A stretch of 64,000 bases of DNA. Origin: a virus. The DNA is taken from the IMG/VR virus record IMGVR_UViG_3300045988_087374; one strand, 5' to 3'. Of the stretch, positions 4,583 to 64,000 are shown in pieces; position 1 is the first letter of the stretch, and every line of letters starts with the position of its first letter. The position numbers and the translations under genes are program-made. A model generated the notes under the pieces. The model was not told the DNA's origin. It was given only the letters and a program-made list of their open reading frames with translations, and ran no database searches.

Positions 4583-4616
4583 TGCAAAAACAATGTAGAA
4601 AAAGAGGTGATGTCAT

Positions 4617-5384
4617 TTGTTCATGCGAGTAATTTCAACAGGAAGTACTAAAGGAAATTGTTACGCTTTGCAGGCAAGTACAGGCGAGATTATTCTTCTT
4701 GACTGCGGATGCAATTACAAGAAAATCCTTAGAGGGATTGACTACCAGATAAGCAATGTTGAAGCTGTACTTCTTTCACATGGGCACGGAGATCACACCG
4801 AAGCATTCAAGGAAATAATGAATGCAGGCATTCAGATTTACGCCAATGACGAGACCGTTGAGGACATGAACGTCCGAACAGGCGAACTGATGAAAGGCGT
4901 TCCAGAAAGATACCCATTTAGAGTTGGTTCGTTTATCGTGACTCCATTTGAGCTGCCGCATACGACATATGATAAAGAAGCAAAAATACTTATTCCGTGT
5001 CCAAACTACGGCTATCTGGTACAGCATGAAGAAATGGGAAAACTCCTGTATATGACCGATTTCGAATTCTGCAACTATAGTTTCCGCAGAATGCAAGTTG
5101 AGCATCTGGTAATTGAGTGCAATTACTGCGAAGAATTGGTGAATAGGTCAGAAGCTAACTACAGGCACCGAATAAAAGGGCATTGTTCTTTGTCAACTTG
5201 CAAGCAATTCATTAAGCAAAACCGCACAGAATCACTTCGGACGGTAACACTGGTACATTTGAGTGGTCAAGCGTCAGATGCCCGTAAAATACAGCAAGAA
5301 ATACAGGAAGTCACAGGAAACAATGTTCTGGTTCAGATCGGACGGGCTGGACTGGAAGTCGACTTGAATTTGTGCCCGTTCTGA
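4617..5384 (+). CDS. metallo-beta-lactamase-fold hydrolase
   Basis: LLSHGHGDH (HxHxDH) motif. Confidence 0.75.
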   Translation: MFMRVISTGSTKGNCYALQASTGEIILLDCGCNYKKILRGIDYQISNVEAVLLSHGHGDHTEAFKEIMNAGIQIYANDETVEDMNVRTGELMKGVPERYPFRVGSFIVTPFELPHTTYDKEAKILIPCPNYGYLVQHEEMGKLLYMTDFEFCNYSFRRMQVEHLVIECNYCEELVNRSEANYRHRIKGHCSLSTCKQFIKQNRTESLRTVTLVHLSGQASDARKIQQEIQEVTGNNVLVQIGRAGLEVDLNLCPF

Positions 5385-5398
5385 AAGGAGAAATTTTT

Positions 5399-5515
5399 AT
5401 GGAAATGCTAGACTGTAGCAAATGTAGATTCCGTAATTGCTGTACGTTGGCATGGGATTACGGTTCACTTTACTGTAACGACTATGAGGAGGAAGATACA
5501 TGGAACATTTCTTAG
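5399..5515 (+). CDS. small Cys-rich hypothetical protein (38 aa)
   Basis: AAGGAG RBS 7 nt upstream; below the track length cut-off. Confidence 0.3.
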   Translation: MEMLDCSKCRFRNCCTLAWDYGSLYCNDYEEEDTWNIS

Positions 5516-5659
5516 AATCACTCGAAAAACTAAAGAAACCGTCAACTCACAGTAATCCAGAGAAAGTTGACCCGTTGTTCTGTCGGTATAACAAGGGTTG
5601 GAATGATGCAATCGAAAAGGTCGAGAAACTGTTTGCAACGATTTCTAAGGAGAAGAAAC

Positions 5660-6082
5660 ATGAATAAAGTAATTTTGATCGGACGTTTAATCAAAGATCC
5701 AGATGTCCGAATGGGAACAAACGATACTAAGATTGCCAGATATACACTTGCAGTCAACCGCAAGTATCACAAAAACAATGAACCCACAGCTGATTTTATC
5801 GGCTGTGTGGCTCTTGGAAAGAATGGTGAATTTGCTGAGAAGTATCTGTACAAAGGAATCAAAATCGCAGTCGCCGGAAGAATTCAGACCGGCAGTTATA
5901 CTAATCGCGATGGGCAGAAAGTGTATACCACTGACGTATTAATCGAAGAACAGGAATTTGCGGAAAGTAAGAAGAGCCAGTCAGAAGAACAGCGTCCACC
6001 GATTCCGAGCCCAGAACAGGGTGCAGATGATTTTATGAGTGTTCCGGCATTCACAGAAGATGATGAACTTCCGTTTAGTTAA
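5660..6082 (+). CDS. ssb: single-stranded DNA-binding protein
   Basis: MNKVILIGRL..., OB-fold pattern, acidic tail DDELPF; AAGGAG RBS; the track start at 5567 is probably too early. Confidence 0.9.
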   Translation: MNKVILIGRLIKDPDVRMGTNDTKIARYTLAVNRKYHKNNEPTADFIGCVALGKNGEFAEKYLYKGIKIAVAGRIQTGSYTNRDGQKVYTTDVLIEEQEFAESKKSQSEEQRPPIPSPEQGADDFMSVPAFTEDDELPFS

Positions 6083-6092
6083 GGAGTAAGAA

Positions 6093-7502
6093 ATGAAGTT
6101 TATAGATTTTTTCGCAGGAATCGGAGGATTTCGCAGAGGAATGGAATTAGCGGGGCATGAATGCGTTGGTTTTTGCGAATTCGATAAATTTGCTACTGCG
6201 AGTTACATCTCAATGCACTTACTGACAGAAGAGCAGCGAAAGACATTGGAAGATATTCCTATCAAGAAAAGACAGAAAGAAATATTAAAGGAGGAATACA
6301 GAAATGGAGAATGGTATGCAAATGACATTAGAAGAGTGTATGCCGAAGACATTCCCAAAGCAGACTGCTGGTGCTTCGGGTTCCCCTGTCAGGACATATC
6401 CGTTGCAGGAAAGCAAGCTGGATTTCAAGGAAACCGTTCAAGCCTGTTTTTCAGAGTTATGTACCTTGTCAGACAACTCAAAGAAGAAGATAAACCCACT
6501 TACCTTTTCATTGAGAACGTTAAAAATTTGCTTAGTGTTAATGGAGGATGGGATTTCGCCAGACTGCTCATTGAAATGGAGCGGCAGGGGTATGATGCAG
6601 AATGGCAGGTGCTCAACTCCAAAGATTTCGGAGTGCCGCAAAACCGGGAAAGATGTTTTATTATCGGACATCTTAGAGGGGGAAGTACCTCAAAAGTATT
6701 TCCTATCGAAGGAACAGACGGAAAAAATAGTATTCAAATAATTGCACATAAAGACGGATATAGAAGAAATACGCAAGTGTTTGGACCTGATGGAATTACC
6801 GAGACTCTTGATACCGGACAAGGTGGTGGAAGAGGACATCATGTAGCATTGCCGTGTTTTATTGATTTAAGTTATAAAAAAACAGAGCTAACCAATAAGG
6901 CAAGGTGCTTACAAGACAGATACAACAAAGGAATTGCAAATCATAAAGCCGAAGTAAGCGGAGTTGCAATTCCAGTTCTCACGCCAGATCGTGCAGAAAA
7001 ACGTCAGAATGGCAGACGATTCAAAGATGATGGCGAGCCGATGTTTACGCTTACGAGTCAAGACAGACATGGCGTAGCAGTTGAACCAATCGGGATACTG
7101 AGAAATGTTCGCACAGAATATGGAAAAGAAATCCGCAAGGATTACGAAAGTGGAAAACTTGATATTTCCAGACATGAATTTCTTGCTAATGAAATCAGAG
7201 AAGATGGAATTGCAAATACCTTAGATACAAGCTGCAATCAAGGAATATTCGTGCAGATATCGGAAGAATTAACGGTATATGCAGTCTGGCATGAAAAATA
7301 TCAGTGTTACATAGCAATCAGAAAGCTGACACCGAAAGAATGTTTTCGGCTGCAAGGCTGGCCCGATGATTATTTTGAGAAAGCTCAGTTTGTTAATTCT
7401 GACAGCCAGTTATACAAGCAGGCGGGAAACGGAGTAACTGTATCAGTGATTAAAACAATTGCGGGAAAATTAAAAATATCTTGCGAACAACAAAGCCAGT
7501 AG
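6093..7502 (+). CDS. DNA (cytosine-5)-methyltransferase
   Basis: FAGIGG (motif I), GFPCQDIS (IV), ENVKNL (VI), QNRER (VIII), GNGVTV (X). Confidence 0.9.
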   Translation: MKFIDFFAGIGGFRRGMELAGHECVGFCEFDKFATASYISMHLLTEEQRKTLEDIPIKKRQKEILKEEYRNGEWYANDIRRVYAEDIPKADCWCFGFPCQDISVAGKQAGFQGNRSSLFFRVMYLVRQLKEEDKPTYLFIENVKNLLSVNGGWDFARLLIEMERQGYDAEWQVLNSKDFGVPQNRERCFIIGHLRGGSTSKVFPIEGTDGKNSIQIIAHKDGYRRNTQVFGPDGITETLDTGQGGGRGHHVALPCFIDLSYKKTELTNKARCLQDRYNKGIANHKAEVSGVAIPVLTPDRAEKRQNGRRFKDDGEPMFTLTSQDRHGVAVEPIGILRNVRTEYGKEIRKDYESGKLDISRHEFLANEIREDGIANTLDTSCNQGIFVQISEELTVYAVWHEKYQCYIAIRKLTPKECFRLQGWPDDYFEKAQFVNSDSQLYKQAGNGVTVSVIKTIAGKLKISCEQQSQ

Positions 7503-30349: not shown

Positions 30350-30421
30350 AGGGCTATCACCAAAAGGTAAGGTAACGGGCTTTGATCCCGTCATGTGTGG
30401 GTTCGAATCCCACTAGCCCCG
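30350..30421 (+). tRNA. tRNA-Gln (anticodon UUG)
   Basis: hand-folded cloverleaf; anticodon loop cTTTGat; T arm gtggg-ttcgaat-cccac; weak 1:72 pair (A.C) and G73, as in Gln tRNAs. Confidence 0.8.
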
Positions 30422-30467
30422 CTTGCCAAGATTTTTGGCACTTATGTTTTCTTTTTTTCACCTCGTT

Positions 30468-30520
30468 ACCATCTAGCTCAACGGAGCTGATTAAAGGGAC
30501 TTCAAATGTCCCGGATGGTT
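30468..30520 (+). ncRNA. tRNA-like minihelix lacking an anticodon arm
   Basis: 7-bp acceptor (accatct/ggatggt), hairpin agctc-aacg-gagct, canonical T arm gggac-TTCAAAT-gtccc. Confidence 0.4.
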
Positions 30521-30628
30521 TTCTCGGATCATAGCAGGAGGTGCTTATCGAGAGCCTTTGTTGCGACTGGTGGTTAAGAATCGCAACAGCAGACGCATTG
30601 TTGCTGACAGCCTACAATGTGCTGCTCA

Positions 30629-30702
30629 GGAAATTTAGTTCAGTTGGTCAGAACGTCCGGCTCATAACCGGAAAGTCCAGGGTTCGAGTCCCTGAATTTC
30701 CA
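30629..30702 (+). tRNA. tRNA with CAU anticodon, elongator type (Met or Ile2)
   Basis: GGAAATT-TA-GTTC-AGTTGGTCA-GAAC-G-TCCGG-CTCATAA-CCGGA-AAGTC-CAGGG-TTCGAGT-CCCTG-AATTTCC-A. Confidence 0.85.
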
Positions 30703-31063
30703 TCTCTTTCCTGAATGCCATTCGTACCGTAAAACGAATGGAAAAAACTTGCCGATTGAGCGTTTTGGCAATGTCTGTACGAGTGCGATACGGCGTAGCT
30801 TGTGCAAGGGATTGCTTTTCCGGTCGGCGTGCATCTCGGAGTAGTAATGTTTGGTGTAACGTGCACTTGGCATGGTGAGTTTTCAAGAGATGCAGTCTTC
30901 AAAAGACATACGTATACAGAATCCTAAACAACTCCGTGGAGCATACCACGGTTACCAAAAAGCCGTCAGGTTGGCAAAAATACGATAGTCCAAGTTATGA
31001 AAAATTGCCTAGTGGAACGCATAACACGAAAAAATCATTGCTAACCCGGGGTGTCCGGGTTGA

Positions 31064-31134
31064 CGCAGGATGGAGTATAGGTAACTCGCGGGCCTCCTTA
31101 GCCCGAAAGGGTGGTTCAATTCCGCCTCCTGCAA
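31064..31134 (+). tRNA. initiator-like tRNA with CCU anticodon (a scanner would call it tRNA-Arg-CCU)
   Basis: CGCAGGA-TG-GAGT-ATAGGTA-ACTC-G-CGGGC-CTCCTTA-GCCCG-AAAG-GGTGG-TTCAATT-CCGCC-TCCTGCA-A; C1xA72, A73, A11:U24, GGG/CCC in the anticodon stem. Confidence 0.75.
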
Positions 31135-31348
31135 TTTGCCAAGAGAAACAAGGTGTCCCAGCCCTTACAACTTGGGTGGGCGGTTTAATTCCGCAAGTCG
31201 GCAGTTCCGGCAGATACTCCTCTAGCAAAAGGTTATTGCTATCCTGTTTATCGGTTTTCGGTTCAAAAAGCAAGTTCTCAATTTTCTCTCTGTGGTGTGA
31301 AAATCAACCCAAACACTTAAATAAAGTGTTTGACCGTTACAGGCGGTA

Positions 31349-31420
31349 CGGAATGTAGCTCAGTGGTAGAGCAATGGCTTTGTAAGCTATGTGCCGCAAG
31401 TTCGATTCTTGCCTTTCCGA
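31349..31420 (+). tRNA. tRNA-Thr (anticodon UGU)
   Basis: TA-GCTC-AGTGGTA-GAGC D arm; anticodon loop ttTGTaa; T arm gcaag-ttcgatt-cttgc; one U.U mismatch in the acceptor. Confidence 0.8.
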
Positions 31421-49990: not shown

Positions 49991-50213
49991 TTATGCTCGA
50001 CGGAGCAATTTAGTACATTGGTACTTTTTCGTGTGGCATTTCGTGGATGGAATTCCATTACCATAATGGTACTTAAATAGGAAATAGAAAGGGAATCGAA
50101 ATCCCGACGGGGATAACGATAGTTTATGCGTAAGGCATAAGCTGGGGCTAGTAGAAATCCGAACGTCTCTCGGAATTTAAACGATAAAATTCACTCAAAA
50201 GGTAGTTGTATAA

Positions 50214-51407
50214 ATGAAACGTTGTTGTAAGAGAATAAATATAACTGATAGAAATTTAATTGAGAGAGCTACAAAAGAATGCTTACATGGGAAAATGAAC
50301 AGAAGTGACGTTATTCGAATGTTTTCGGAGTATTCCGGTGTTTCATACAACGTAATAAAGAAGATATGCAAAGACAAACGTATGATGAACGGAGTAATAC
50401 AGACGGTTGTTGATGGTATTCAACAGGAGATCATCAATAAGAAATACATCGTAAAGCCTATCCGTTACAGAAAACAAGTTGATAAGTGTAATGGTAAAAT
50501 CAGAAATATTGGAATTCAGGATATCAAACAGCAGATTTATGATTATATTGCCGTTTACGCAATGGACGAATTGTTCAGAAAGAAACTGGGATTTTATCAG
50601 TGTGGAGCATTGAAGAAAAAAGGAAATGAATTTGGCTCAAAAGCAATTAAAAAGTGGGTAAATAACCATAACATGCGGTGGGCTTGGCAGGCAGATGTCA
50701 GGCATTATTACGAAACTATCCCAAAGCATAAATTGAAGCACCTTCTTTCCAGAGATATTGACAATCCTGATATTTTACATTTGGTATTTTTCTTGATTGA
50801 TACTTTTGATGGTGGGCTTTCAATCGGTTCATATCTCAGTCAGTATCTTGCTAATTACTATATGAGTTACGCATATCATTATGTGAGCGAACAAATCATA
50901 AAAACAAGAAAACATAAGAGTGGGAGCGTTAGTACCAGAACCTTGATTTCACATTCATTGTTTCAGATGGATGATGTTTTATTTTTGTCCAAAAGTCTTA
51001 AAGACTTAAAAATGGCAGTGAAACAATTCTCAAAATACATCAAGGAATTTTTGGGGCTGACTCTTAAAGATACATCAAATTTTATAGACTTGAGAATGGG
51101 GTATATTGATATTCTCGGAAGAAAAGTTTCCAGAAGAAGTCTGACAGTTCGCTCTTCAAATTTTATCCGTTTCCGCAGAACCGCAAGCAGAGTGAGAATC
51201 TTAGTGCGTCAGAATAAAAATATTCCATTATTGCTGGCAAGGAGCTATATCGGGCGGTATGGTGCTATTAAACATTCTGACACAAAGAAGTTCCAAAAGA
51301 AATATCACGTACCAGAAGATTTGAAAAGATGTAAAAATATCGTTTCTGCATATGAAAGGAGAATAAACAGACATGAAAGCAATGCGATTTACTTTTCCCC
51401 AACTTAA
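50214..51407 (+). CDS. DGR-type reverse transcriptase (second copy, divergent)
   Basis: LSIGSYLSQYLANYYM (IGxxxSQ), FQMDDVLFL (xMDD), ADVRHYYETI. Confidence 0.85.
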   Translation: MKRCCKRINITDRNLIERATKECLHGKMNRSDVIRMFSEYSGVSYNVIKKICKDKRMMNGVIQTVVDGIQQEIINKKYIVKPIRYRKQVDKCNGKIRNIGIQDIKQQIYDYIAVYAMDELFRKKLGFYQCGALKKKGNEFGSKAIKKWVNNHNMRWAWQADVRHYYETIPKHKLKHLLSRDIDNPDILHLVFFLIDTFDGGLSIGSYLSQYLANYYMSYAYHYVSEQIIKTRKHKSGSVSTRTLISHSLFQMDDVLFLSKSLKDLKMAVKQFSKYIKEFLGLTLKDTSNFIDLRMGYIDILGRKVSRRSLTVRSSNFIRFRRTASRVRILVRQNKNIPLLLARSYIGRYGAIKHSDTKKFQKKYHVPEDLKRCKNIVSAYERRINRHESNAIYFSPT

Positions 51408-51690
51408 TACTTCCATCTATCAACTGGATAAAGGCATGGATGTTATGATCTGCCTTAATGAAAGACAAGTTATTGCTGAAAATCCAGATGGTATCTCGGA
51501 AATAATGTATGAGTATGACGGAAATATTTTTCGTACATTTAAACTGACCGAAGAAGAAATTATGCGAGAACCAGAAAAATATCTGGACTACGAAGGAGAT
51601 ACTGAACCCACAGAAGAAATGACTCAATATGCAAACGAAATGATAGATGCCTATACAGAACAATTAATTTCGGAAGGAGTGATTGCGTGA
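51373..51690 (+). CDS. acidic hypothetical protein
   Basis: 105 aa, overlaps the RT 3' end. Confidence 0.5.
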   Translation: MKAMRFTFPQLNTSIYQLDKGMDVMICLNERQVIAENPDGISEIMYEYDGNIFRTFKLTEEEIMREPEKYLDYEGDTEPTEEMTQYANEMIDAYTEQLISEGVIA

Positions 51691-51818
51691 GAATTTTAGT
51701 TGAAAGTCTGAGAAGAATGTACGCGAATGGAAAAATAACAAAAGAAAAGATTGAAAGCATGTTGATTTTGACAGAAGCAGAGAAATATTACATACTTTCA
51801 TCGAAAGGAGAAGAATAA
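51687..51818 (+). CDS. XkdX-like small protein (43 aa, not in track)
   Basis: GTG start overlapping the previous stop; ...YANGKITKEKIESMLILTEAEKYYI. Confidence 0.45.
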   Translation: MRILVESLRRMYANGKITKEKIESMLILTEAEKYYILSSKGEE

Positions 51819-53851
51819 TGGCAATTGCATTAAATACAGTGATCGTTGACGGTCAAGAATATAAACCGGGAGATGTGATTCCAGACTTCAAGAGTATCAA
51901 ATGTGTTGATACGAGAGAACCACGAAAATATCAGGGATTATCTGCGGATGTTTCTGTCCTGAATGATGTTATTGCAAAATACGCTTCGGGCGGGGCATCC
52001 TGTTTTATGTCCGATACGGGAGAATACTATGAGTATGATCGCAAGGAAAAGACATTTAAACTTATCACCAATATCACAGAGCGTGGATTTGGTTCCGAAA
52101 AAGCGTATGGCGCGTTAAAACATATGCTTAAAAATGTGACTGTAAGTGATGAGAAGATACAAAGTGCTGTCACGGATTATCTGAGGGTAAATCCAGTCCT
52201 TCCCGGAGCCACCACAGAACAGGCACAACAGATCGAGCAGAACAAGACAGACGTTGCTTCACTGAAAGAGGAAACTGGTTCGCTAAAGGAAGATTTAGGA
52301 AACATAATGGATAATGTAAATCCGTTAACCTGGAACGATGGTTTTATGCTTCAAGATGGAAAAGCTGTTGCTGCTGATGGAAGAAGTGTGTCTGATTTTT
52401 GTTTATGTCCAGCAGAAACGCAAGTTGAATATATTTCTGAAACAGCAAATCAGTATGTACAAGGTATCGTTTTTTATGATAAATATAAAACACCTATTAT
52501 CGGATATGCTAACAATGGTAAAGATGAAGAGCCATGCACAGTTACATCGCCTAAAGGCACATATTATCTTAGATTAAGTGTGGTGAATAGTAATATTGAT
52601 AAAGCATATTTCAAGAGTAGCACACCAACTGTTAAAAGTTTTATCGAAAGAAATTCTAACCGTTTGATTGCTGCACAGGATACAGATTTTGCAGAAATTG
52701 AAGTGACAAATTATATGCTTATTTGCGATATCATCAAAAATAAATCTTATGTAGTAACCAATAATGTGTATAACGGTTTACAAGATAGCGAGAATAAAGA
52801 TTCTTCAACACTATGTATTCTTGATAAAACAAAAGACATGTATGCCGGGAATAGGTACAATGTGGATGTGATATTTTTTGATTCAGACAGAGAATTTATA
52901 TCATCAACTAATGCATTGTATCATGGGACAAAATTAACAAAAGAACAGTATCCATCAAATGCAAAATATGTTGCATTTACATGGGCGAAAGATGCTGTAA
53001 TTGCAGATAAAATGTATGTTTCTACTGTAGATAATGGATGGCAAACCGGATTGCCTGCACTTAAATATGGAAAAACAATCAAGTATAAAGGGCAAAGACC
53101 AAACATTAATATTTATAATTCAGATACACAAGAAGAAATATTTGATAAATTAGCTGATGCTTGCTATACACAGGATTGCGACGTGTATTTTGAAAAGGGT
53201 ACTTATATTTTTGATGCTATTTATGATAAAATCAAGACTTATTACAATAGCGTTGGAGATGCATTTGAAATGCTTTTAGGTGGGAACTGTCGATATTATA
53301 TGTATGGATGTACATTCAAAGGTGATTTTACAAATAGTACTGGTAAACAATCAACATTCGGTTCTCATAGACATGCAGGAAGTTATGAAATATTTGGTGG
53401 AACAATTATTTGTGTAGATGGCACTTATTGTGTACATGATGAAGTGAGTGGCGAAGAACTAATTAGTGTTAGAAAATATCATCATGTTACATTCAAATAC
53501 GTCAAAGGTAGCACTTATTCTAATTGGTTATGTAAATGTCTTGGATGTGGTACAGGAAAAAATACAATTACAATTATTGATGGCTGTTATTTTGAATCAG
53601 ATAATGATTTAAGTGATGCCGAAGCAAGTTGGCATGGTAATCTTGAAGATAATTCGGCTTGTGAAACATTTGTTGAAGTAAAAAATTCATATTTCAAGGA
53701 CAAAGGTTTTTATGTGGATGCTATTCCATCAGAATCTAAACAGATGGGTAAAATTATATTTTGTAACAATTCTGTTAAAAACAGATTACCTACAGAATCA
53801 AATGGATGGATTTTGGCTGGATGGAATAACGAGGTTCGTAGCACTAATTAA
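51818..53851 (+). CDS. tail fibre / receptor-binding protein
   Basis: 677 aa; N-terminus paralogous to ORF 47631. Confidence 0.6.
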   Translation: MAIALNTVIVDGQEYKPGDVIPDFKSIKCVDTREPRKYQGLSADVSVLNDVIAKYASGGASCFMSDTGEYYEYDRKEKTFKLITNITERGFGSEKAYGALKHMLKNVTVSDEKIQSAVTDYLRVNPVLPGATTEQAQQIEQNKTDVASLKEETGSLKEDLGNIMDNVNPLTWNDGFMLQDGKAVAADGRSVSDFCLCPAETQVEYISETANQYVQGIVFYDKYKTPIIGYANNGKDEEPCTVTSPKGTYYLRLSVVNSNIDKAYFKSSTPTVKSFIERNSNRLIAAQDTDFAEIEVTNYMLICDIIKNKSYVVTNNVYNGLQDSENKDSSTLCILDKTKDMYAGNRYNVDVIFFDSDREFISSTNALYHGTKLTKEQYPSNAKYVAFTWAKDAVIADKMYVSTVDNGWQTGLPALKYGKTIKYKGQRPNINIYNSDTQEEIFDKLADACYTQDCDVYFEKGTYIFDAIYDKIKTYYNSVGDAFEMLLGGNCRYYMYGCTFKGDFTNSTGKQSTFGSHRHAGSYEIFGGTIICVDGTYCVHDEVSGEELISVRKYHHVTFKYVKGSTYSNWLCKCLGCGTGKNTITIIDGCYFESDNDLSDAEASWHGNLEDNSACETFVEVKNSYFKDKGFYVDAIPSESKQMGKIIFCNNSVKNRLPTESNGWILAGWNNEVRSTN

Positions 53852-53974
53852 CTAAAGAGGGCTTTAGTGAACTCTCATAGTTCTTTTCTGCCCAACACGC
53901 AAGCTGATATTATGTTTATCGGCAAGGAATATCGGTGGGGCTTAATTATATTGATTAAGAACAGGAGAAAAGAC

Positions 53975-54163
53975 ATGAGAGTAAAGATTAAAGTCGGAGA
54001 TAACAAGATTGAGTTCAATATGAGCAAGCGTCAGGCTCTGCTTATCGTAAAAATGGCACAGGAGTTCGAAAAAGTGTACATGGCAGATGTGTTCGCAACC
54101 TTGGACGATGTAGATTCTGAGATTGATAAATCTGAAGAAGCACAGGAAACCGAAGTAAAATAA
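53975..54163 (+). CDS. hypothetical protein
   Basis: AGGAG RBS before MRVKIKVG. Confidence 0.45.
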   Translation: MRVKIKVGDNKIEFNMSKRQALLIVKMAQEFEKVYMADVFATLDDVDSEIDKSEEAQETEVK

Positions 54164-54179
54164 ACAATCAACCATTTAG

Positions 54180-54208
54180 GGGAGAGCAGAAAATGTTCTC
54201 CCTTTTTT
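54180..54208 (+). terminator. rho-independent terminator
   Basis: gggaga/tctccc stem, then tttttt. Confidence 0.7.
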
Positions 54209-54226
54209 CACATTGGAGAAAGTATT

Positions 54227-54625
54227 ATGAGAGGATTAAAAAGACAGAAACAGACCGTGTATTGGTCAAGAATCACTGAGGAACTTGACGGGATAGATAC
54301 CGTACCGACATACAGTCAGCCACAAAGTTTTAAGTTTTCCGTATCGTCTACCGCAGGAACGCCAGAGGAAATATCGGCAGGAATTGTGCCGGATTACGAC
54401 AGGTACATTACTTCCTTTAACCGTTCTTTTTGTCCACAAGAAGGAGATGTATTTTGGATTGATACCGTGCCACAGGTTGACACACTGGGAAATCTGGTTC
54501 TGGAAGATGGTATTCCTACAACACCGCCAGATTACCGTTTGAAAAAGGTTCTTGATACTCAGAAGGGCAATGTAGCCAGATATGGAATCAAAAAGATAGG
54601 TGCAGAGAATGAGCAAAAGAATTAA
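54227..54625 (+). CDS. head-tail joining protein (family unassigned)
   Basis: position; 132 aa. Confidence 0.45.
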   Translation: MRGLKRQKQTVYWSRITEELDGIDTVPTYSQPQSFKFSVSSTAGTPEEISAGIVPDYDRYITSFNRSFCPQEGDVFWIDTVPQVDTLGNLVLEDGIPTTPPDYRLKKVLDTQKGNVARYGIKKIGAENEQKN

Positions 54626-55127
54626 ATGCACATTGAGTTCGGAATCCATCCGAAATGCCATTAAGCAGCTAGAAACATACCAGAACAGATTGCAGGATAA
54701 GAATGAGATATTCGTGCAAAGATTGGCAGAACTGGGAATCCCCATTATAAATGAAAATATTATGTTGGCACAGGGGGATTCTGATAAAAACCACAATACC
54801 TACATCAAAATCAACAGGTTTGGAAGCTATGCACGGGCAACTCTTGTGTGCGAGGGTTCTGACCTAAGTTTCATAGAATTCGGTGCAGGTATTCATTACA
54901 ACACTCCGGCAGGAACAAGTCCCCATCCAAAAGGAGAAGAATTCGGATATACCATTGGTTCCTACGGACAGGGAAAAGGAAAAAACGAATCGTGGGTATA
55001 TGTGGCAGATTCTGGCGAATGGGTACGCTCTTACGGTACGGAGGCTACAATGCCCGTTTACAAAGCAAGTGTAGAAATTATGCAGAACATCCGTAGAATC
55101 GCAAAAGAAGTGTTTTCTGCACAGTAA
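54609..55127 (+). CDS. HK97 gp10-like tail-completion protein (tentative)
   Basis: position and size only. Confidence 0.4.
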   Translation: MSKRIKCTLSSESIRNAIKQLETYQNRLQDKNEIFVQRLAELGIPIINENIMLAQGDSDKNHNTYIKINRFGSYARATLVCEGSDLSFIEFGAGIHYNTPAGTSPHPKGEEFGYTIGSYGQGKGKNESWVYVADSGEWVRSYGTEATMPVYKASVEIMQNIRRIAKEVFSAQ

Positions 55128-55128
55128 T

Positions 55129-55446
55129 TCATGGATGAATAATCTTTCCAGAGTCCATATCTATGATGAGGTCTGGTGATTCTATGTCGTAGCACTCCGG
55201 GTCGTCGGGGTCTAGTATCTTACAATCAATCAGAACCTTTCTGCCCTCACATTCCGCGATGAAAGACACGGAACCAGTTTCCGGGTTTTGCGGTGGCTGA
55301 CATATTAGCAGATACTCTTTTCCGTAGATAGTGACTTTTTCGTTGATCGGATTTATGCAAGATTTGAGCATTTTAAAATTTCTCCTTGTCACAGATTTTG
55401 TACCAATTATACGCCCGTACATCTGCTGCGGCAATAGCAATTCCAT
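55129..55446 (-). CDS. hypothetical protein, the only minus-strand gene in the tail module
   Basis: 105 aa. Confidence 0.55.
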   Translation of the reverse strand: MELLLPQQMYGRIIGTKSVTRRNFKMLKSCINPINEKVTIYGKEYLLICQPPQNPETGSVSFIAECEGRKVLIDCKILDPDDPECYDIESPDLIIDMDSGKIIHP

Positions 55447-55542
55447 ACTGAAACATACTTAGGAAAATGGTATACTATAGTATATAAAAGCATCTGCCGG
55501 AATGGTGGGTGCTTTTTTCATGCGAAAAGGTAGGGTGATAAA

Positions 55543-55944
55543 AGGTTAGATACTGTAAAAAACCCAATTGAAGAAGTGTTTTCCAGATGGTCAAGGGCAA
55601 TCGAGCCAGTTGTCGGCAAAGGAAATTATTCCATGGATGAAAGCCAGACAATAGCTTCCACCAAAAAGACATACGCAAGGTTATTCTTACTTGGCAGTCC
55701 TACAGCAAGAAGCAATCTTGAGGGGGATGAATGTGCCACAATGCCATCATTTCAAGTCGAATCGTATGCATCCGGAGCAAAGGGTTCTTCAAAAGCATAC
55801 GACATTGATGCAGTTAGCCATGAAACCATGGTCAGTATGGGCTTCCGAAGAACATATGGGCCAGTCAAACAAAACAACGCTGATAACAGTATCAAGCGAG
55901 TTGTCAGCAGATACAGCCGGATATATACCGGCACATTACTCTAG
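55543..55944 (+). CDS. tail-completion/terminator-like protein; proposed AGG start (track: GTG 55576)
   Basis: frame opens at 55534; GGTGAT SD-like 55534-55539; AGG 55543; no canonical start before 55576. Confidence 0.45.
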   Translation, partial: RLDTVKNPIEEVFSRWSRAIEPVVGKGNYSMDESQTIASTKKTYARLFLLGSPTARSNLEGDECATMPSFQVESYASGAKGSSKAYDIDAVSHETMVSMGFRRTYGPVKQNNADNSIKRVVSRYSRIYTGTLL

Positions 55945-55961
55945 GAAAGGAGTGAAAAAAC

Positions 55962-56255
55962 ATGGAACAGATCATGAACTATGTGAAGCCGGAACTTCTG
56001 ATTGTCGCAGTTGTGCTGTACTTCATCGGAATGGGCATTAAAAAGTCCGAAATTATCCCGGATAAATATATCCCGGCAATCCTTGGCGCTTTAGGAATTC
56101 TGATTTGTGGAATTTACGTGATCGCATCTTCCACAATGTCTGGTTCTCGCGAAATTGCAATGGCAGTTTTTACCGCAATCACGCAGGGAATTCTTGTCGC
56201 AGGATTAAGTAACTATGTGAACCAGATCGTAAAGCAAGCAAATAAAGAAGAATAA
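55962..56255 (+). CDS. holin-like membrane protein
   Basis: 97 aa, 2-3 TM segments, charged C-terminus. Confidence 0.55.
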   Translation: MEQIMNYVKPELLIVAVVLYFIGMGIKKSEIIPDKYIPAILGALGILICGIYVIASSTMSGSREIAMAVFTAITQGILVAGLSNYVNQIVKQANKEE

Positions 56256-56290
56256 TTATTTATGGGTCGAAAGACGGAAAGGAGTACGTA

Positions 56291-56770
56291 AGGGCACGAT
56301 TAACAACGCTTGGTGTAAAATTTTCATACGCCGTTGAAACGGTAAAAGGTACAAAGCCAGCTAAATTCACACAGTTGGAAGAGGCTTCTTCCATCGGTGG
56401 CATTTCTCTTGAAACAGAACAGATTGACGTTTCCGCACTGGAAGATTATCTGACTCAGTATGCGGCAGGTAGACAGGACACAGGTGGTACTTGGGAGATT
56501 GAGTTTATCATGGATCCAGACAAATCCGTTAAACAGATCAAGAAACTGTACGAAGATTCTAAGAATGCAAAAACTACAGGACTGGCAACTTGGTTCCAGG
56601 TATCATTCCCGGATATGTCCGACGCATTCTTCGTTATCGCAGAATGCGGTCGTGAAATCCCAATGCCGGAAATTGCACAGAACGAAGCGGCAACCATGTC
56701 CATTTCTCTTATCATCAGTACTTATAAGGGACTGGACACCAAAGTTGAGCCTACAGCAGCTGCTGAATAA
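56291..56770 (+). CDS. major tail protein; proposed AGG start (track: TTG 56375)
   Basis: AAAGGAG 56278-56284, 6-nt spacer, AGG 56291; 28 in-frame codons (ARLTTLGVKFSYAVETVKGTKPAKFTQ) with no ATG/GTG/TTG. Confidence 0.6.
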   Translation, partial: RARLTTLGVKFSYAVETVKGTKPAKFTQLEEASSIGGISLETEQIDVSALEDYLTQYAAGRQDTGGTWEIEFIMDPDKSVKQIKKLYEDSKNAKTTGLATWFQVSFPDMSDAFFVIAECGREIPMPEIAQNEAATMSISLIISTYKGLDTKVEPTAAAE

Positions 56771-56792
56771 GATGTAAAACAGGGAGGTTATC

Positions 56793-57203
56793 ATGTTTAG
56801 TTTCTCAGTAAATGATAAAACATACAAAGTAAAATTCGGATATGGCGTACTTACCCAGTCGGATATTCTTACGCAGGTGTCTTCCATGGGAGAAATCACC
56901 AATCCGAAAGATATGATTAAAATGCTTCCAGAACTGATTCTGGCAGGGTTGCAAAGAAAACACAAAGACGAATTCGGGTACGAAACCGAAGAAGAAAAGA
57001 AAGTTGCGTATGAAAAGGTATGTGACCTTCTGGACGACTACGAAGATGAATCCACAGAGGAAAATCCTCATAATGGATTTACTTTATTTGAAAAAGCAAG
57101 TAAGGAGCTTGAGAAGAACGGTTTTTTATCCGGCATGATAAATGCAATGGAGAAAGAGGAGGAGAAACTTCCGAAGACTCCACAGGATCACAAGAAGAGC
57201 TGA
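56793..57203 (+). CDS. tail assembly chaperone (G-like)
   Basis: position before the tape measure; acidic C-terminus. Confidence 0.6.
   Translation: MFSFSVNDKTYKVKFGYGVLTQSDILTQVSSMGEITNPKDMIKMLPELILAGLQRKHKDEFGYETEEEKKVAYEKVCDLLDDYEDESTEENPHNGFTLFEKASKELEKNGFLSGMINAMEKEEEKLPKTPQDHKKS
57122..57128 (+). promoter_or_regulatory. putative -1 programmed frameshift slippery heptamer T_TTT_TTA
   Basis: X_XXY_YYZ in the chaperone frame; the -1 frame stays open to 57604. Confidence 0.5.
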
Positions 57204-57238
57204 CTTTTTCTGAAGTAGTCCACAAGAAGCTACTTCCG

Positions 57239-57604
57239 TTGTACTTATCAATCGGTGTTTCTGAAGAAAAGTTCTGGGATTCCACGCCATATGACCTTGA
57301 GCCATATCTCGATGCTTACAAATTAAAACAGCGGCAGTGGGATGCACAGGCATGGCAGTACAATATGTATACTATGTGCGCTGTCCAGACTGCTGTTGCG
57401 ACTGTACTTGTTGGCAAGAAATCCAAGGCGAAGTATCTTGATAAGCCATTCCTGCAAGATATACAAGAAGAACAGGAGAAAGGTGAAAATCTTTCTGAGG
57501 CAGAAAAGAAACGACAAAGAGAAAAATTACTTATGACTTTGCAACTTATGCAAGCGAATTTCGAACTGAATCACAGCAATGATGATGAGGGCAGGCAGGA
57601 TTAA
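57239..57604 (+). CDS. -1-frame extension of the tail chaperone (GT-like product); probably not independently initiated
   Basis: frame open upstream to the slippery site; no RBS at TTG 57239. Confidence 0.5.
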   Translation: MYLSIGVSEEKFWDSTPYDLEPYLDAYKLKQRQWDAQAWQYNMYTMCAVQTAVATVLVGKKSKAKYLDKPFLQDIQEEQEKGENLSEAEKKRQREKLLMTLQLMQANFELNHSNDDEGRQD

Positions 57605-57630
57605 AAGTCTTGTCTGCCCTTTATTTTTTT
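57589..57630 (+). terminator. strong hairpin plus U-run just upstream of the tape-measure start
   Basis: 12-bp stem gggcaggcagga/tcttgtctgccc, then tttattttttt. Confidence 0.6.
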
Positions 57631-57650
57631 GATTAAAAGGAGGTGGCTTA

Positions 57651-60600
57651 AGGGCTGATAATACCATAGATACTCTTGATATACAGATAACCAGTAGCAC
57701 CGAGAAAGCAGTGCAGTCAATCAGAAATTTATCCAAAAGTCTAATTGGATTGAATAAATCATTAGGAAGTGTTAATGCCAACGGAATCCAAAAATATGCA
57801 AATGAACTTCAAAAGGTTGTATCTGCATTTGATTCCTTGAACTCGAAAACTTCTGGATTGTCGACAGGGATGCAACGGGTTTCGGAATCATTATCATCTA
57901 TTGGAAAAGTAGATTTTAAAGAGACCGGAGTAAACTCATTTATCAATGCCATGAACCGTTTGGCTAAGGTGGATATGAGCAATTTCGATACTTCAAAACT
58001 TGGAAATATCGTATCTTCTTTGTCGGCATTGGCAAATATTCCGAATGTTTCATCCGGTGTAAATCGTTTTGTCTCTTCTGTGGCGAAATTAGCCGGGACT
58101 GGTGATTCTATCGGAACGGTTTCTAAGGAGATCACAAGCCTTGCGGACGCATTAAAAAGAGCAACCGAAAAGATGAGTACGGTTGGAGATGTTTCTGAAT
58201 CTGTCAACACATTTGTCCAATCTATTGCAAGACTGGCAAGTGCTGGAAACAAGACCGGGCAGACTGCAAGCCAGTTGTCTGTGTTGTCCAAGGCGTTACT
58301 TGATTTTTTTAATGCCATGCGTGATGCACCTAATATCAGTTCCGATGTTATCCGTATGACAGAAGCATTAGCACAATTGGCGAGAGCGGGTGGAAATATT
58401 GGAAGTTCCACCAGTTCTGTATCGAATTCGTTCAATACTATCAGCACTTCTTCTTCGAGGACGGAAATTGCTATACGAGGAATGTCACGGGTATTTTCCA
58501 CATTTGCTTTAAAGACGATTTCTCTTGGTCAAAAGGCTGCATCTGCAATCGCAAGGATTGGAATATCCGCGATCAATACCGCATCCAAGCTCAAGAAGAT
58601 GTCTGGAATTTTTACTACAATTAGCAACAAAATCAACAGCTTGTATATGCGAATGTTCTTCCTACAGAGGATTGGTTCTACACTGTTCAAACCGATAAAA
58701 TCAGCTGTCAATTATGTGGAAACTCTCAACTATTTCAACTCTGCATTCAAGCAAGTAGCTGAGAATGTGGATACGGACGAATGGAAGAAAAGTGGTATAA
58801 AATCCGCTGAAGCATATGCAGATTCGTTCCAAGAAAGAGCTAAGCAACTTTCACAGAAGCTGACAGGGTTTGAAGTTTCAGATACTGGCGAACTAACCAG
58901 AACCAATACTGCCAATCTTGGGCTTGACCCGGAAAAGACTATGCAGTATCAGGCAACATTTGCACAGATGGCATCTTCTATGGGAGATACATCGGAAACT
59001 GCGTTGAAGCTGTCAAATGCCTTGACTATGGTTGGCGCTGACCTTGCTTCTGTGCGAAACATGGACTTCGAGGATGTATGGCAGGATATGGCATCCGGCT
59101 TGACTGGTATGAGCCGTGCAATGGACAAGTACGGCATCAATATCCGTAATGCTAATATGCAACAAGAATTATACAATCTGGGAATTGACACCAGCATATC
59201 AAAGTTATCTCAGGCAGACAAAACAATCTTAAGAACGATTATTTTGCTGAATAACTCACAGTATGCATGGGGTGATTTGGCTAAAACGATTAACGGGTCA
59301 GTAGCGTAATAAATGCGTAGCTACTGGCAAGTCGCTCATATCGAAACCGACAAGTAGGGTATGAGTCATCAGTGATGAAATAAGCTGGAAAGCCGTTTGC
59401 AACGGTAATCAGAGAGTGAAGGCTGTGATTAAAACCGCAGTCAACCGCAACGCGTAGGAAGTGAACCTATAGTTGAGATACTACAGAATATAATCTTCCC
59501 AAGAGTCATCACTATCGGTCGGTACGGATGCAGAATCCGTGGTAAAAAGGTACGCTGGACTTGTACTGTAATGGTGCAGAAGTAAGGATAAAAAGCCTTG
59601 CGATAACAATTCGAGAACAGCCAGCAAACCAGATTCGTATGCTTCAATCTAACTTTGCTTCACTCGGAAGAACAATAGGTTCTTTGTTCATTCCTATACT
59701 GCAAACAGTTCTTCCATATATTAACGCAATTGTAATCGCACTGCAAAGAATGTTCGCTTATATCGCGAAACTTCTTGGTATTAAACTATCAAATTATGTT
59801 GCTTCTACGGGTGGAATTGCTGTTGATACAAGTAACATTGCAGACGAAATGGACAATGCCAGTGATTCTATTGATACTGCAAATAAGAATGCCAAAAAAC
59901 TTGAAAAAACATTATCTGTACTTGCTTTTGATGAACTGAATCAGCTTAGTGATAACTCTGATTCCAGCGGTACGAGCAGTCCGACATCCGGCACTGGCGG
60001 TAGTGCAGCACACCTTCCGGCATTGGATGCAGCACTAGATGCGGCTCTTGCCAATTACCAAAAGGCGTGGGACGAAGCATTCAAGAAAATGTCCAATAGG
60101 GCAAATGAGATGGCAGATGCTATTGTAAATGCTTTTAAGAAAAAAGACTGGAAAGGTCTTGGAAAAATAATGGCAGACGGCATCAACTGGGGAATGAAAA
60201 AACTCTATGATGCAATCAACTGGAATAAAGTTGGCCCGTATATTACAAAATTCACCAGTGCATTCACTCAGACGTTCAACAGCCTTGTCGATAATATCAA
60301 CTGGGACTTGATCGGACGTACTTTTGGAGCCGGTGTTAATACGATTGTTAATACAACAAATCAACTTTTAGAGGGAATTGACTGGAAGAACCTCGGGGCG
60401 AAGTTTGCTTCTGGAGTCTCAGGACTTGTAAGGGAAGTTGACTGGGAAAACTTCGGAAATCTTATTGGCAACTCTTTTATGCGTGGATGGAAAATCTTCG
60501 CGGGATTTGTCGAAAATCTTCCGTACAGCGAAATTGGTGTTGCTGTAGCAAACGGACTCAACGGAATTTTCCGTAAGATTAATTTTGCAGAGATTGCAGA

Positions 60601-62710
60601 TGCACTGGCAACCGGGCTGAATGGTGCTTTTAATACGCTCGCTTCTTTCACTAAGACTTTTGACTGGGATGAAATGGTTGATAATATCACAGGAGGTATT
60701 GTTACATTCATGCAGAAATTTGACTGGAAAGGAAACGGAGCAAAACTAGAAGATTTCATAAATCATTTGCTTACTGCACTGGTTGACATTGCCAAAGGTG
60801 TTGACTGGGAAGCATTTGGACACAATGTCGGTGTATTTCTCAGTGAAATCGACTGGGGGAAACATCTTAAACAATTGCTTACTGTATTGACCAGTGTTCT
60901 TGGTGGCATTTGGGAAGGACTCGGAAGCACGTCTGCCGGTACATTCATTCAGGCAATAGCTGTATTTGCAATTGGTTCAAAGTTGATGCCATTTGTTAAT
61001 AGCATTACGAAATTTTTGACCGGCTCAACCGTAACGACAAAACTTTCTACCGCAATTCAAGGAATGCTCAATCCGGCAATAACATCTGTCGCAGAAACGG
61101 CTGTTCCAGCGTTAGGAACTTCTCTCGGAAGCCTCGTTGCGACTGGTGGTGGAATTGCCTTGGCAACCGCAGGTGCAGTATTCCTTACCAAAAAATTAGC
61201 AGGACTTTTTGAAACCATGCAGGGCGGTAATGGAATGACTACTCAGTACGGTGGTTATCTGCATGATTATGCAACTCAGCTGACTAATGTAGCAAGCCTC
61301 ACCAATGAGCAATCAGAGGCATTATGGCAGTTGATTGAAAAGGATGAGGAACTTGGAAAAAGCCATGATGAAATGTATTCAGATATGGTTGAAAAACTGA
61401 AAGAATATGGTGTTTCCGCAGATCAAGCCAGAACTGCTCTTGTACTGTACGGAACGCAAGCGGGTGTATCAGCTGAGTTTGTGGACGGCATGACAAAGAA
61501 GATTGCAGAACTTGGCGAAGGAGTATCAGAAGCTGCTTCTAAATTCGACACATCCAAAATCAGTATGTCTGACCTTAAAAACGAACTGTATATGTTGAGT
61601 TTACAGTCTGATGAATTTGGTGGTTCGTACAGGACTGCTATGGACGAATTGGATAACGCTAATAATGGCGGTACTATCACAAGCACAAAAGATGCATTAG
61701 ATGCGGTTTATACTTCACTTAAAAATGCCGGAGTTCCGCTTGATGAGTTGAATAATAAACTGGCCAAGGATTTTCCTGATGCAACTGTCGCAACAAAAAC
61801 TGCGATTGAAAAGAATATCGTAGGTGCACAGAAAACCATTTCTTCCTCTGCCGGAAAAGCATCTAAAGATACCACAACGGCAACAAATGAAATGGCAAAG
61901 ACAGCTACTGACGATTTTGCAGAAATCCAGAAACAAGCAGACACTTACATGAAAGGCATGGAAACAACCACTACAAGCTCCTGGGGAAATTCCTCAAGAG
62001 AAGCGACCTTAAAAGCCAGAGAAATGAAAGTTGCAGTAAGTACGGAACTTGGCTTCATGGATAAGTCCGTAGCAAGTCATTTCAAAAGTCAATACAACAT
62101 TGCATACGGTAAATGGGAGTCACTTGGAAAAGCTGTATCTTCTTACATTTCAAAGGACATGAACAGCAAAATCGGCAGTTCTTTGAACAGCGTTGTAAAT
62201 ACAATTAAAAGCAAGTTTACCGGACTGTATAACGTCGGCAGAAATGCAATGCAAGAGTTGGCGAACGGTATGAGGTCTGTCCATATCAGCACGCCGCATA
62301 TGTGGATGAACATGAATGCTTCTACAAGCGGAAACCATTATTCCTACAACTGGAATTCTGGTGTAAACTGGTATGCGAAAGGCGGTCTGTTCGGTAAGGC
62401 ATCTGTGATCGGTGTTGGCGAGGCTGGTAACGAGGCTGTTCTTCCTCTGGAAAACCGGAAGGTAATGAAAGGCATTGCTGACAGTATCATGTCTGGTTAC
62501 GATGGTTCCATGGGATTGTCGGCTGAAGAACTTGCGGCGGCAGTGGAACGCGGTGTTGTTACTGCGATAATGAACAATGGTGGAATAGGCGGTTCTGCTC
62601 CTGAGTACATCATGAACAGCATTAAAGTCAATGAACGTGAACTTGCGAGAATTGTCACAAAAGCACAGGAAAACACAGATTATCGGATGAATCCGTCACC
62701 AGCCTATTGA
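57651..62710 (+). CDS. tape measure protein, interrupted by an intron at 59291-59613; proposed AGG start (track: GTG 57711)
   Basis: GGAGG 57639-57643, 7-nt spacer, AGG 57651; track ORFs 57711-59309 and 59561-62710 join as ...WGDLAKTI/EQPANQIRML... Confidence 0.65.
59291..59613 (+). mobile_element. probable ORF-less group I intron in the tape-measure gene (boundaries +/- a few nt)
   Basis: U at -1 (59290) can pair with G59331 in a P1-like helix; last nt G59613; in-frame stops right after the 5' junction; Q-like aaaaccgcag and R-like gttgagatactaca. Confidence 0.55.
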
Positions 62711-62766
62711 TTTTTGTGCCGGAATATGGTAATATATAAATACGCATAAGGGATGTTGAACCCGAA

Positions 62767-62824
62767 GGCATACTAAGGATAAAAGAGGCAAAAGCCTCAG
62801 GATTCTTTAGTATGCCTTTTTTTT
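62767..62824 (+). terminator. rho-independent terminator after the tape measure
   Basis: 13-bp stem ggcatactaagga/tctttagtatgcc, then tttttttt. Confidence 0.7.
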
Positions 62825-62862
62825 ATTTGTCAGAAAATATTTACAGAAAGGAAAATAGATAA

Positions 62863-63300
62863 ATGGCATCTAAAGTTTTGATTTTATTCTTTGCTTCTTT
62901 GCTGTCACTTTCCAATGCGGCTACACCACAAGTGGCAGAAACTCCTCAGATACAGGAAGAATCTACAGCACCTACAGTATCCGAAGATTCCACAGAATCC
63001 GTAGAACCTACAGAAACACCTGAATATGCTGCTGAGGATGAAAATGATTCGCTGACCGTTGAGGAAAAGTATGAACACAACCAGAACAAAGAAGATTACC
63101 TTGAAGATGATGGAGAAAATCTGATCTGGTACGATGTTCCGTACTGTGACGATCACGACTACGAAGTAATTGAAGACGACGCAGAAACTATGTATATCTG
63201 CAAGAAATGCGGATATTCACATTCTGAGTTCACGGAAGAATCTGAGGATGAGCCGGAAGAAGAACTACCAGAAGAAACCGATTCTGACGGCGAAGAATAA
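62863..63300 (+). CDS. secreted, highly acidic protein with a C-terminal CxxC
   Basis: signal peptide MASKVLILFFASLLSLSNA; E/D-rich. Confidence 0.6.
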   Translation: MASKVLILFFASLLSLSNAATPQVAETPQIQEESTAPTVSEDSTESVEPTETPEYAAEDENDSLTVEEKYEHNQNKEDYLEDDGENLIWYDVPYCDDHDYEVIEDDAETMYICKKCGYSHSEFTEESEDEPEEELPEETDSDGEE

Positions 63301-63312
63301 TTTAGGTAAAAC

Positions 63313-63372
63313 CAACAGGCTAACCCGACGGGGGACAAGTGCAATTCCATGATGCACCTGCCTGTTGTTTTT
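63313..63372 (+). terminator. terminator-like hairpin
   Basis: caacaggc/gcctgttg stem, then ttttt. Confidence 0.45.
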
Positions 63373-63433
63373 ATACATCATGGATCTGTGACTACAAGGC
63401 AGTCACGCATTAACGACATGGAGGTTATCTATT

Positions 63434-64000
63434 ATGAGTGAACAAATCAAAGAATTATCCCAAAATGAATTAGAAAGAAAAGTAGATTACATATTTTCAC
63501 ATAGATTTAATCACACTCTGCATGCTTATATCGATATTGCAGGTGATTTGACAGCAGGTGTTTTATTATCTCAAATTATGTACTGGTTTGATAAAGATTC
63601 AAAAAATGAGTGCGTCAGAACAAAAATCAAAAAGAAAGGTTATTTTTGGATTGCTAGGCGTAGAGATGAATGGGCAAACGAAATAAGAGTTTCACCTAAG
63701 CAGTATGATTCTGCGATGAAAAAATTAAAAGCTAGAAATTTGGTAGTTGTTGAAAAATTTAAAATTAATGGTGCACCAACAACGCATATCAGACCTAATG
63801 ACGAAGTAATAAATGTTGCTATCAAAGAATGGAAAGAACAAATTGCCATTAAAATCATCAAGGACAATGAGGCTGAGCAAAATAGAGCAGATTCTTCAAA
63901 TCAGAATTTGACAGAAGAAGAAATTTATAAAAAAGACGCTTCAAATACTGATGAATACTGGTTTTCCCCAAAAGAGGAAGTTCCAAATTCCAAAAAAAGG
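63434..64000 (+). CDS. winged-helix replication-initiator-like protein, 3'-truncated by the window edge (not in track)
   Basis: GGAGGT RBS; open to nt 64000; LLSQIMYWF...GYFWIARRRDEWANEIRVSPKQY. Confidence 0.5.
   Translation, partial: MSEQIKELSQNELERKVDYIFSHRFNHTLHAYIDIAGDLTAGVLLSQIMYWFDKDSKNECVRTKIKKKGYFWIARRRDEWANEIRVSPKQYDSAMKKLKARNLVVVEKFKINGAPTTHIRPNDEVINVAIKEWKEQIAIKIIKDNEAEQNRADSSNQNLTEEEIYKKDASNTDEYWFSPKEEVPNSKKR

Follow-up and report, generated by a model that had tools for sequence, protein, structure and literature searches.

The 64,000-nucleotide (nt) stretch of the IMG/VR virus record IMGVR_UViG_3300045988_087374 that was analyzed here, hereafter the window, carries an insertion at positions 59291-59613, within the gene of its tail tape-measure protein (TMP). 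From sequence comparisons, we consider it very probable (roughly 0.92) that this insertion is a functional, self-splicing group I intron of the subgroup-IA type. A group I intron lacking any open reading frame (ORF) had been proposed at this place in the original prediction, and the proposal is borne out by uninterrupted homologues of the gene, by another intron occupying the same position in near-identical phages, and by covariation across a family of similar elements.

The split tape-measure gene and its insertion site

The TMP gene of the window appears as two ORFs on the plus strand. The upstream ORF (57711-59309) ends in ...AWGDLAKTINGSVA before its stop codon (in longer form, ...YAWGDLAKTINGSVA) and a second TAA follows directly, so that two consecutive in-frame stops (TAA TAA, 59307-59312) lie downstream of the 5' junction, as had been noted. 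The downstream ORF (59561-62710) is in a different frame and starts with MYCNGAEVRIKSLAITIREQPANQIRML. The ORF listing of the insert itself (59291-59613) contains no plus-strand ORF of at least 30 amino acids (aa). When these 323 nt are removed in silico, ACG AU^A GAA (carets mark junctions) is joined in frame, the ligated codons reading T-I-E, and a single open frame of 1558 aa results, which reads ...GDLAKTI^EQPANQIRML... (WGDLAKTIEQPANQIRML). The 30-mer across the predicted exon-exon junction is GGCTAAAACGATAGAACAGCCAGCAAACCA and the corresponding predicted peptide is ..DLAKTIEQPANQIR...

The in-frame join proposed originally holds when compared with uninterrupted proteins. The spliced segment is matched by PHROG 1535 (‘tail length tape measure protein’, E=5.9e-33) and by PHROG 28918 (E=7e-80), each as one stretch over the junction, while Pfam and NCBIfam searches with the gene halves or the junction returned noise only. 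A 256-aa query spanning the junction retrieved 114 phage records with tblastn, many of them annotated as tape measure protein, and the top record, Dulem virus 39, covered query residues 1-256 in one piece. The BLASTP alignment with the uninterrupted 1078-aa TMP of Dulem virus 39 shows no gap over the join, with 49% identity over 172 aa (at the join, YAWGDLAKTIEQPANQIRML in the window vs YAWGDLADTINQPANQMRLL; BLASTP stretch, YAWGDLAKTIEQPANQIRMLQSN vs YAWGDLADTINQPANQMRLLEAN); an alignment to intron-less orthologues had been suggested as a check. An alternative junction that keeps an arginine (..TI-REQPANQ, intron 59292-59611) was discarded: it leaves an extra residue relative to the homologues, and the intron would end in U rather than G.

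The empty site is also found as DNA. In eight viral contigs, ACN ATH GAR CAR CCN GCN AAY CAR is continuous and codes for ..GD(L/F)xRTIEQPANQ(M/I)..; the uninterrupted contigs read ACA ATA GAA CAA CC.. at the TIEQPANQ motif, and the intron-less form of the site is ACGATAGAACAGCC. The TIExxANQxRxL-type motif named in the original prediction is therefore real. The window phage itself matches IMG/VR contigs; a megablast of window positions 50000-64000 against GenBank phages found no close relative of it, and an exact 37-mer had no match in the GTDB genomes.

Among these contigs, the insertion site is occupied in two ways. The 323-nt intron is also present in L129, L132 and L133, with 1-3 mismatches to the window. 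Contigs L130 and L131, with exons 97% and 93% identical to those of the window, respectively, carry instead another intron of this family, 1249 nt long (414-1662 on the minus strand of L130), between the same ...AAAACGAT^ (ACGAT^) and G^AGAACAGCC. Since two inserts of unrelated length have identical flanks, the boundaries are fixed at 59290^59614, and the predicted limits (59291-59613) agree both with this 1249-nt sibling and with the intron-less DNA. The sibling encodes a 314-aa GIY-YIG/NUMOD1 protein, a typical homing endonuclease, which would make this TMP position a homing site; the endonuclease that characterizes a mobile intron is thus found in the sibling and is absent from the 323-nt intron.

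The ends of the insert fit the rules of group I splicing. A 5-bp P1, in which cgatt (59287-91) is complementary to agtcg (59330-34), puts U59290 opposite G59331, the wobble pair named in the original prediction. In relatives located at other insertion sites, UGGU^A is accompanied by U-GCCG at the homologous guide position; therefore, an A-U pair and the first intron pair of P1 change in a compensatory fashion, and P1 covaries with the insertion site. At the other end, the terminal G59613, also predicted, is matched by the sibling intron (..G^AGAACAGCC), and the 3' splice site is fixed there by the gapless protein alignment, the intron-less DNA and the sibling. In two relatives, L046 and L067, protein continuity implies a last exon base C instead of U, and the guide G is replaced by A; judging from these sequences, their 5' splice sites would be natural C·A wobbles in place of the U·G pair of P1.

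The conserved core and the intron family

The structural model (Table 1) was derived by comparison. It was then tested, with P3 written as a pseudoknot, on 43 diverse family members aligned with plain MAFFT. In this alignment, 81.9% of the cells are paired, compared with 35-41% when the partners are slid by 1-3 columns, and the covariation score is 0.471, compared with 0.08-0.13 in the slid controls. Both sides change in 52 of the 64 pairs, and none of 500 shuffles reached the observed values. RNAalifold, given no structure, recovered P4, P5, P6a, P7, P7.1, the inner P7.1a/P7.2 hairpin, P8 and P9.1. For the 5' region, 11 members of the subfamily were used: the P1 extension together with P2 has 97.8% of its cells paired (29-42% when slid), with both-side changes in 16 of 17 pairs. 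P3 changes on both sides in five of its six counted pairs, and its duplex energy is -9.3 kcal/mol.

Within P7, the first pair is G-C in all 43 sequences, G59452 being presumably the partner in the guanosine-binding pair, and at the third pair 37 sequences have A-U and six, including the window, have G-C. The A-rich J4/5 (AAA) and J8/7 (AAAAAGG) are both conserved in the family and are presumably functional. The 1990 classification of Michel and Westhof reportedly recognizes subgroup IA by additional helices, P7.1 together with P7.1a or P7.2, that are placed between P7 and the P3 3' strand. Both P7.1 and the inner helix are supported by covariation, and the modeled fold is that of a canonical group I intron containing this subgroup-IA insertion. 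Two elements named in the original prediction were misassigned: the ‘Q-like’ aaaaccgcag (59442) consists of the P6a loop and 3' strand, and the ‘R-like’ gttgagatactaca (59472) belongs to the P7.1a/P7.2 hairpin. Table 1 gives the true P4', R and S elements.

Two loops have kept their sequence in the subfamily, in contrast to their covarying stems. One is the 14-nt loop of the P1 extension (59306-59319, GURAUMAAUGCGWA), which holds the in-frame stops UAA UAA, and the other is the loop of P2 (59343-59357, GAAAYCNNCAAGUAG). These loops may form tertiary contacts.

Table 1. Positions in the window of the TMP exons, the proposed intron and its modeled structural elements
Feature	Position	Strand	Remarks
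TMP exon 1	57711..59290	+	526 codons plus AU of the Ile codon; ORF listing, PHROG matches
TMP exon 2	59614..62710	+	Final A of the Ile codon, followed by EQPANQIRML... up to the stop
Probable group I intron, subgroup IA-like	59291..59613	+	323 nt, no ORF; profile, covariation, fixed boundaries
P1 5' strand CGAU^U	59287..59291	+	5' splice site after U59290; pairs with 59330-59334
Internal guide AGUCG (P1 3' strand)	59330..59334	+	G59331 in the U·G wobble
P1 extension hairpin	59297-305 with 59320-328	+	97% paired; 8/9 pairs change on both sides (11 relatives)
P2 hairpin	59335-42 with 59358-65	+	98.9% paired; 8/8 pairs change on both sides
P3	5' strand AGUGAUGA 59371-78 with 3' strand UCAUCACU 59506-13	+	Pseudoknot with P7
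P4	59385-88 with 59409-12	+	99.4% paired; CG/GC and GC/UA swaps
P5	59392-97 with 59401-06	+	Inside P4; J4/5 AAA, J5/4 AA; P4 and P5 found independently by RNAalifold
P4' (Q element) AAUCAG	59407-12	+	
P6	59416-17 with 59444-45	+	Weak, 2 bp
P6a	59421-27 with 59436-42	+	91.7% paired; 7/7 pairs change on both sides
R element GCAACGCGUAGG	59447-58	+	Contains the P7 5' strand, 59452-56
P7	59452-56 with 59551-55	+	Paired in 43/43 sequences
P7.1	59457-61 with 59495-99	+	100% paired; 4/5 pairs change on both sides
Inner P7.1a/P7.2	59467-73 with 59480-86	+	88.9% paired; one A·C mismatch in the window
P8 and P8a	59514-16 with 59541-43; 59524-29 with 59535-40	+	89-93% paired; compensatory changes even among close relatives
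S element AAAAAGGUACGCUGG	59544-58	+	J8/7 AAAAAGG, P7 3' strand UACGC (59551-55), UGG
P9	59560-67 with 59573-79	+	
P9.1	59582-87 with 59596-601	+	78.6% paired; 6/6 pairs change on both sides
3' tail GAUAACAAUUCG	59602..59613	+	Ends in the terminal G59613; GAUAACA near-invariant in the family

The family to which the insert belongs is widespread among phages. A blastn search of GenBank phages with the insert found matches in unannotated gaps within split genes (TMP, helicase, gyrase A, DNA polymerase). They include the split tape-measure gene of Streptococcus phage phiJH1301-1, with an identical GAU^AGAA junction, a gap preceding the helicase gene of a Bacillus phage, a gap inside gyrase A of Yersinia phage phiR1-37, and, in Bastille-like Bacillus phages, the 3' part of the I-BasI-encoding DNA-polymerase intron, which is 93.5% identical over 31 nt (59578-59608). 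Their common core can be written as ..GCAACGCRUAG-helix-UGAAMCU-hairpin-AGAAUAUAAU-helix'-CCAMGAG..GAAAAGRUAYGCUGRAC-hairpin-AAG-hairpin-GAUAACA. A scan of IMG/VR with the core motif AACGCRTAGN{10,40}AGAATAWAAT returned at least 120 viral contigs, and one typical member matched 84 isolate-phage records from Staphylococcus, Bacillus, Clostridium, Clostridioides, crAss-like and cyanophage sources. A profile hidden Markov model, built from 41 related elements and leaving out the window and its closest relative, gave a single match in the whole 64-kb window, at 59377-59608 (E=3.1e-37). As the profile was built without the window and matches only there, membership of the family is not a chance result.

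Introns of the same subfamily also occupy other positions. Among relatives of this phage, they were observed in the major tail gene of five contigs (L009, L031, L042, L046 and L086), L009 having two of them about 200 nt apart. In L067, one lies in the TMP gene at another site, some 40 codons upstream (GQSRA^LYKYGI). The window's own major tail gene has no such subfamily intron.

The proposed splicing pathway and its alternatives

We propose that in the late transcript the intron would fold into its canonical core, where the exon end CGAU and intron U59291 would pair with the guide AGUCG and present the U59290·G59331 wobble. In the first step, a free guanosine docked at the G59452-C59555 pair of P7 would attack after U59290. 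In the second, G59613 would take over the guanosine site, and the freed 5' exon would attack after G59613. The ligated message, ACG AUA GAA, would then be translated into one tape-measure protein of 1558 aa, while ribosomes on unspliced RNA would halt at UAA UAA, 17 nt into the intron. The 323-nt intron cannot home by itself, as it has no endonuclease gene; vertical descent and recombination are the probable means by which it is maintained. It occupies, and so would mask, the presumed target of the related endonuclease-bearing intron, and may persist by disrupting that target or spread by recombination.

Several results weigh against this interpretation. The Rfam group I model RF00028 (Rfam 15), a search that had been suggested together with the original prediction, did not match the insert, either at the gathering score over the window or at E<=10 in a 600-nt slice. 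P6 has just 2-3 bp in the window copy and is 66% paired across the family, and the inner P7.1a/P7.2 helix contains an A·C mismatch where close relatives have G-C. A P10 pairing was looked for beside the splice site and none was convincing. Finally, the nested model has an energy of -68 to -73 kcal/mol compared with a minimum free energy of -92.5 kcal/mol. A model structure lying above the energy minimum is usual where tertiary contacts stabilize a ribozyme; thermodynamic folding by itself was not decisive (z=-2.3). The RF00028 null is not counted against the intron because the model also fails on its relatives: all nine family members tested were left unreported at E<=1, although it did report canonical introns from the same loci. 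We thus attribute the missing match to a blind spot of the model.

The weak P6 and the mismatch, together with the lack of a homing endonuclease and the presence of an ORF starting with TTG at 59561, could also indicate a decayed intron that no longer splices, in which case the TMP would be made as two polypeptides (from ORF 57711-59309 and from TTG 59561) or the gene would be dead. We regard this as unlikely. The core helices are intact and every invariant position of the family is retained; L129, L132 and L133 keep the intron nearly unchanged, and the differences from relatives of about 90% identity (L023, L052, L082 and L103) are mostly compensatory, falling in P6a, P8a and P9. Besides, the first 18 codons of the ORF at 59561 correspond to the conserved P9/P9.1 RNA, also encountered upstream of unrelated genes (as in L009), and decay would leave the conserved TMP motif cut in half.

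An interrupted gene with no ORF in the insert would also be compatible with a group II intron, a miniature inverted-repeat transposable element or insertion sequence fragment, or an intein-like element, yet all of these seem highly improbable here, as a covarying core with the P3/P7 pseudoknot is peculiar to group I. Group II introns have a GUGYG 5' end and a domain V, are at least 600 nt long and usually carry a reverse-transcriptase ORF. In contrast, the insert measures 323 nt, starts with UAACG rather than GUGYG, has no domain V and has no match to RF00029. Neither terminal inverted repeats nor a target duplication, as in a transposon, were seen at its ends, although no dedicated repeat search was made, and an intein is excluded by the in-frame stops. 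Joining of the two ORFs during translation, by ribosomal bypass or frameshifting, would be in keeping with the different frames of the two halves and with a gap that starts near stop codons. However, the gap amounts to 323 nt of a conserved structured RNA that is present in many unrelated genes, and the longest ribosomal bypass known to us spans about 50 nt (T4 gene 60); the chances of such recoding appear minimal. Removal of the insert as a group I intron consequently remains the interpretation that we favor.

Known systems, the limits of the Rfam model and implications

The orf142 introns of Staphylococcus phage Twort, which belong to subgroup IA2 and for which a crystal structure is available, are among the known systems closest to the intron of the window. 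Like the intron of the window, those of Twort (AF132670) are small, ORF-less and located in a tail gene (tail-tube), with the same order of elements and a very similar 3' layout (..CUGRAC-P9 hairpin-AAG-P9.1 hairpin-G.UAACA....G). In contrast, their P7 is canonical (GACUA/UAGUC vs GCGUA/UACGC in the window) and is followed by two separate hairpins instead of the nested P7.1/P7.1a, and RF00028 scores them at 64-101 bits, while the window intron has no RF00028 score. The DNA-polymerase intron of the Bastille type, with I-BasI (Bacillus phage Eyuki and relatives), shares its P9/P9.1/tail architecture with the window but differs in having an endonuclease ORF, a polymerase gene as host and canonical R and S elements.

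Group I introns in TMP genes have been known since 2008, when IA1/IA2 introns were described at three TMP sites in prophages of the Bacillus cereus group, as well as in a tail-tube gene (Tourasse and Kolsto, 2008; PMC2504315). Some of these elements (TMP-IVS1, 2, 3a and 3b) are endonuclease-free, and different introns share one site (PMC2504315). The intron of the window resembles them in its IA subgroup, in its location in a conserved TMP stretch, in lacking an endonuclease, as some of them do, and in the sharing of a site, here with the intron of L130 and L131. It differs in belonging to an uncultured gut-type phage and in its site, TI^EQPANQ, although the prophage introns were compared by description only. 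Therefore, the only mildly novel aspect is the existence of a large family that escapes the standard Rfam model.

Indeed, the family is set apart from canonical introns by its P7 (GCRUA/UAYGC), the two middle pairs of which are different, and by the nested P7.1. An intron at the I-BasI position in a Bastille-type phage reached 42.8 bits with RF00028, under the threshold of 50. One contig (L045) presents three RF00028 matches beside a family member: its positions 4574-6707 hold four group I introns in about 2.2 kb, three of them canonical (Rfam 48-106 bits) and one invisible to Rfam (6499-6707). A survey of Bastillevirinae introns published in 2025, in which splicing was experimentally confirmed for some, already pointed out that the models of Rfam and GISSD may not succeed with phage variants and that phage introns are more diverse than the current subgroups (PMC11878797). 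The lack of an RF00028 match marks a limitation of the model, and such a match is not among the biological features that define the group. It is conceivable, at what we would put slightly below even odds, that the intron belongs to a large unnamed clade of subgroup-IA phage introns, and that the altered P7 (GCRUA/UAYGC instead of GACUA/UAGUC) together with the nested P7.1/P7.1a hides the whole clade from RF00028.

Other features of the window were recorded along the way. The major tail protein gene (PHROG 158; region 56262-56375) has no canonical start codon, its beginning reading AGG GCA CGA TTA ACA.. in the window vs ATG GCA CGA TTA ACT.. in L038, where the sequence just 5' of the ribosome-binding site of the gene is also different. 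The AGG is not a read error, as it is the same in three independent contigs (L129, L130 and L131). A 9-codon upstream ORF (ATG 56262 to TAA 56289-91) overlaps this AGG by one base, and a 97-aa ORF for a hydrophobic, holin-like protein (55962-56255) lies directly upstream of the start-less gene. Downstream of the TMP gene there is an int-alpA RNA (63313-63383; RF02996, 52 bits, above gathering), also present in L023, and four tRNA genes are clustered at 30350-31420 (RF00005, 47-75 bits).

Regarding annotation, the two ORFs of the window should become a single TMP gene of 1558 aa, join(57711..59290, 59614..62710). Since the tape-measure protein sets the length of the tail, calling it as two genes misleads structural inference. 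The presence of endonuclease-bearing and endonuclease-free introns at one site in near-identical phages also offers a tidy natural system for the turnover of introns and their endonucleases. The family is a concrete instance of the gap noted for phage intron variants (PMC11878797), and with a dedicated family model many genes that are now split in phage and virome annotation would be repaired. If the tentative clade proposed above is real, it would merit its own covariance model or subgroup, and gut, staphylococcal, clostridial and crAss-like phages would have introns in their structural and replication genes that are systematically unannotated, the host genes being called as split ORFs.

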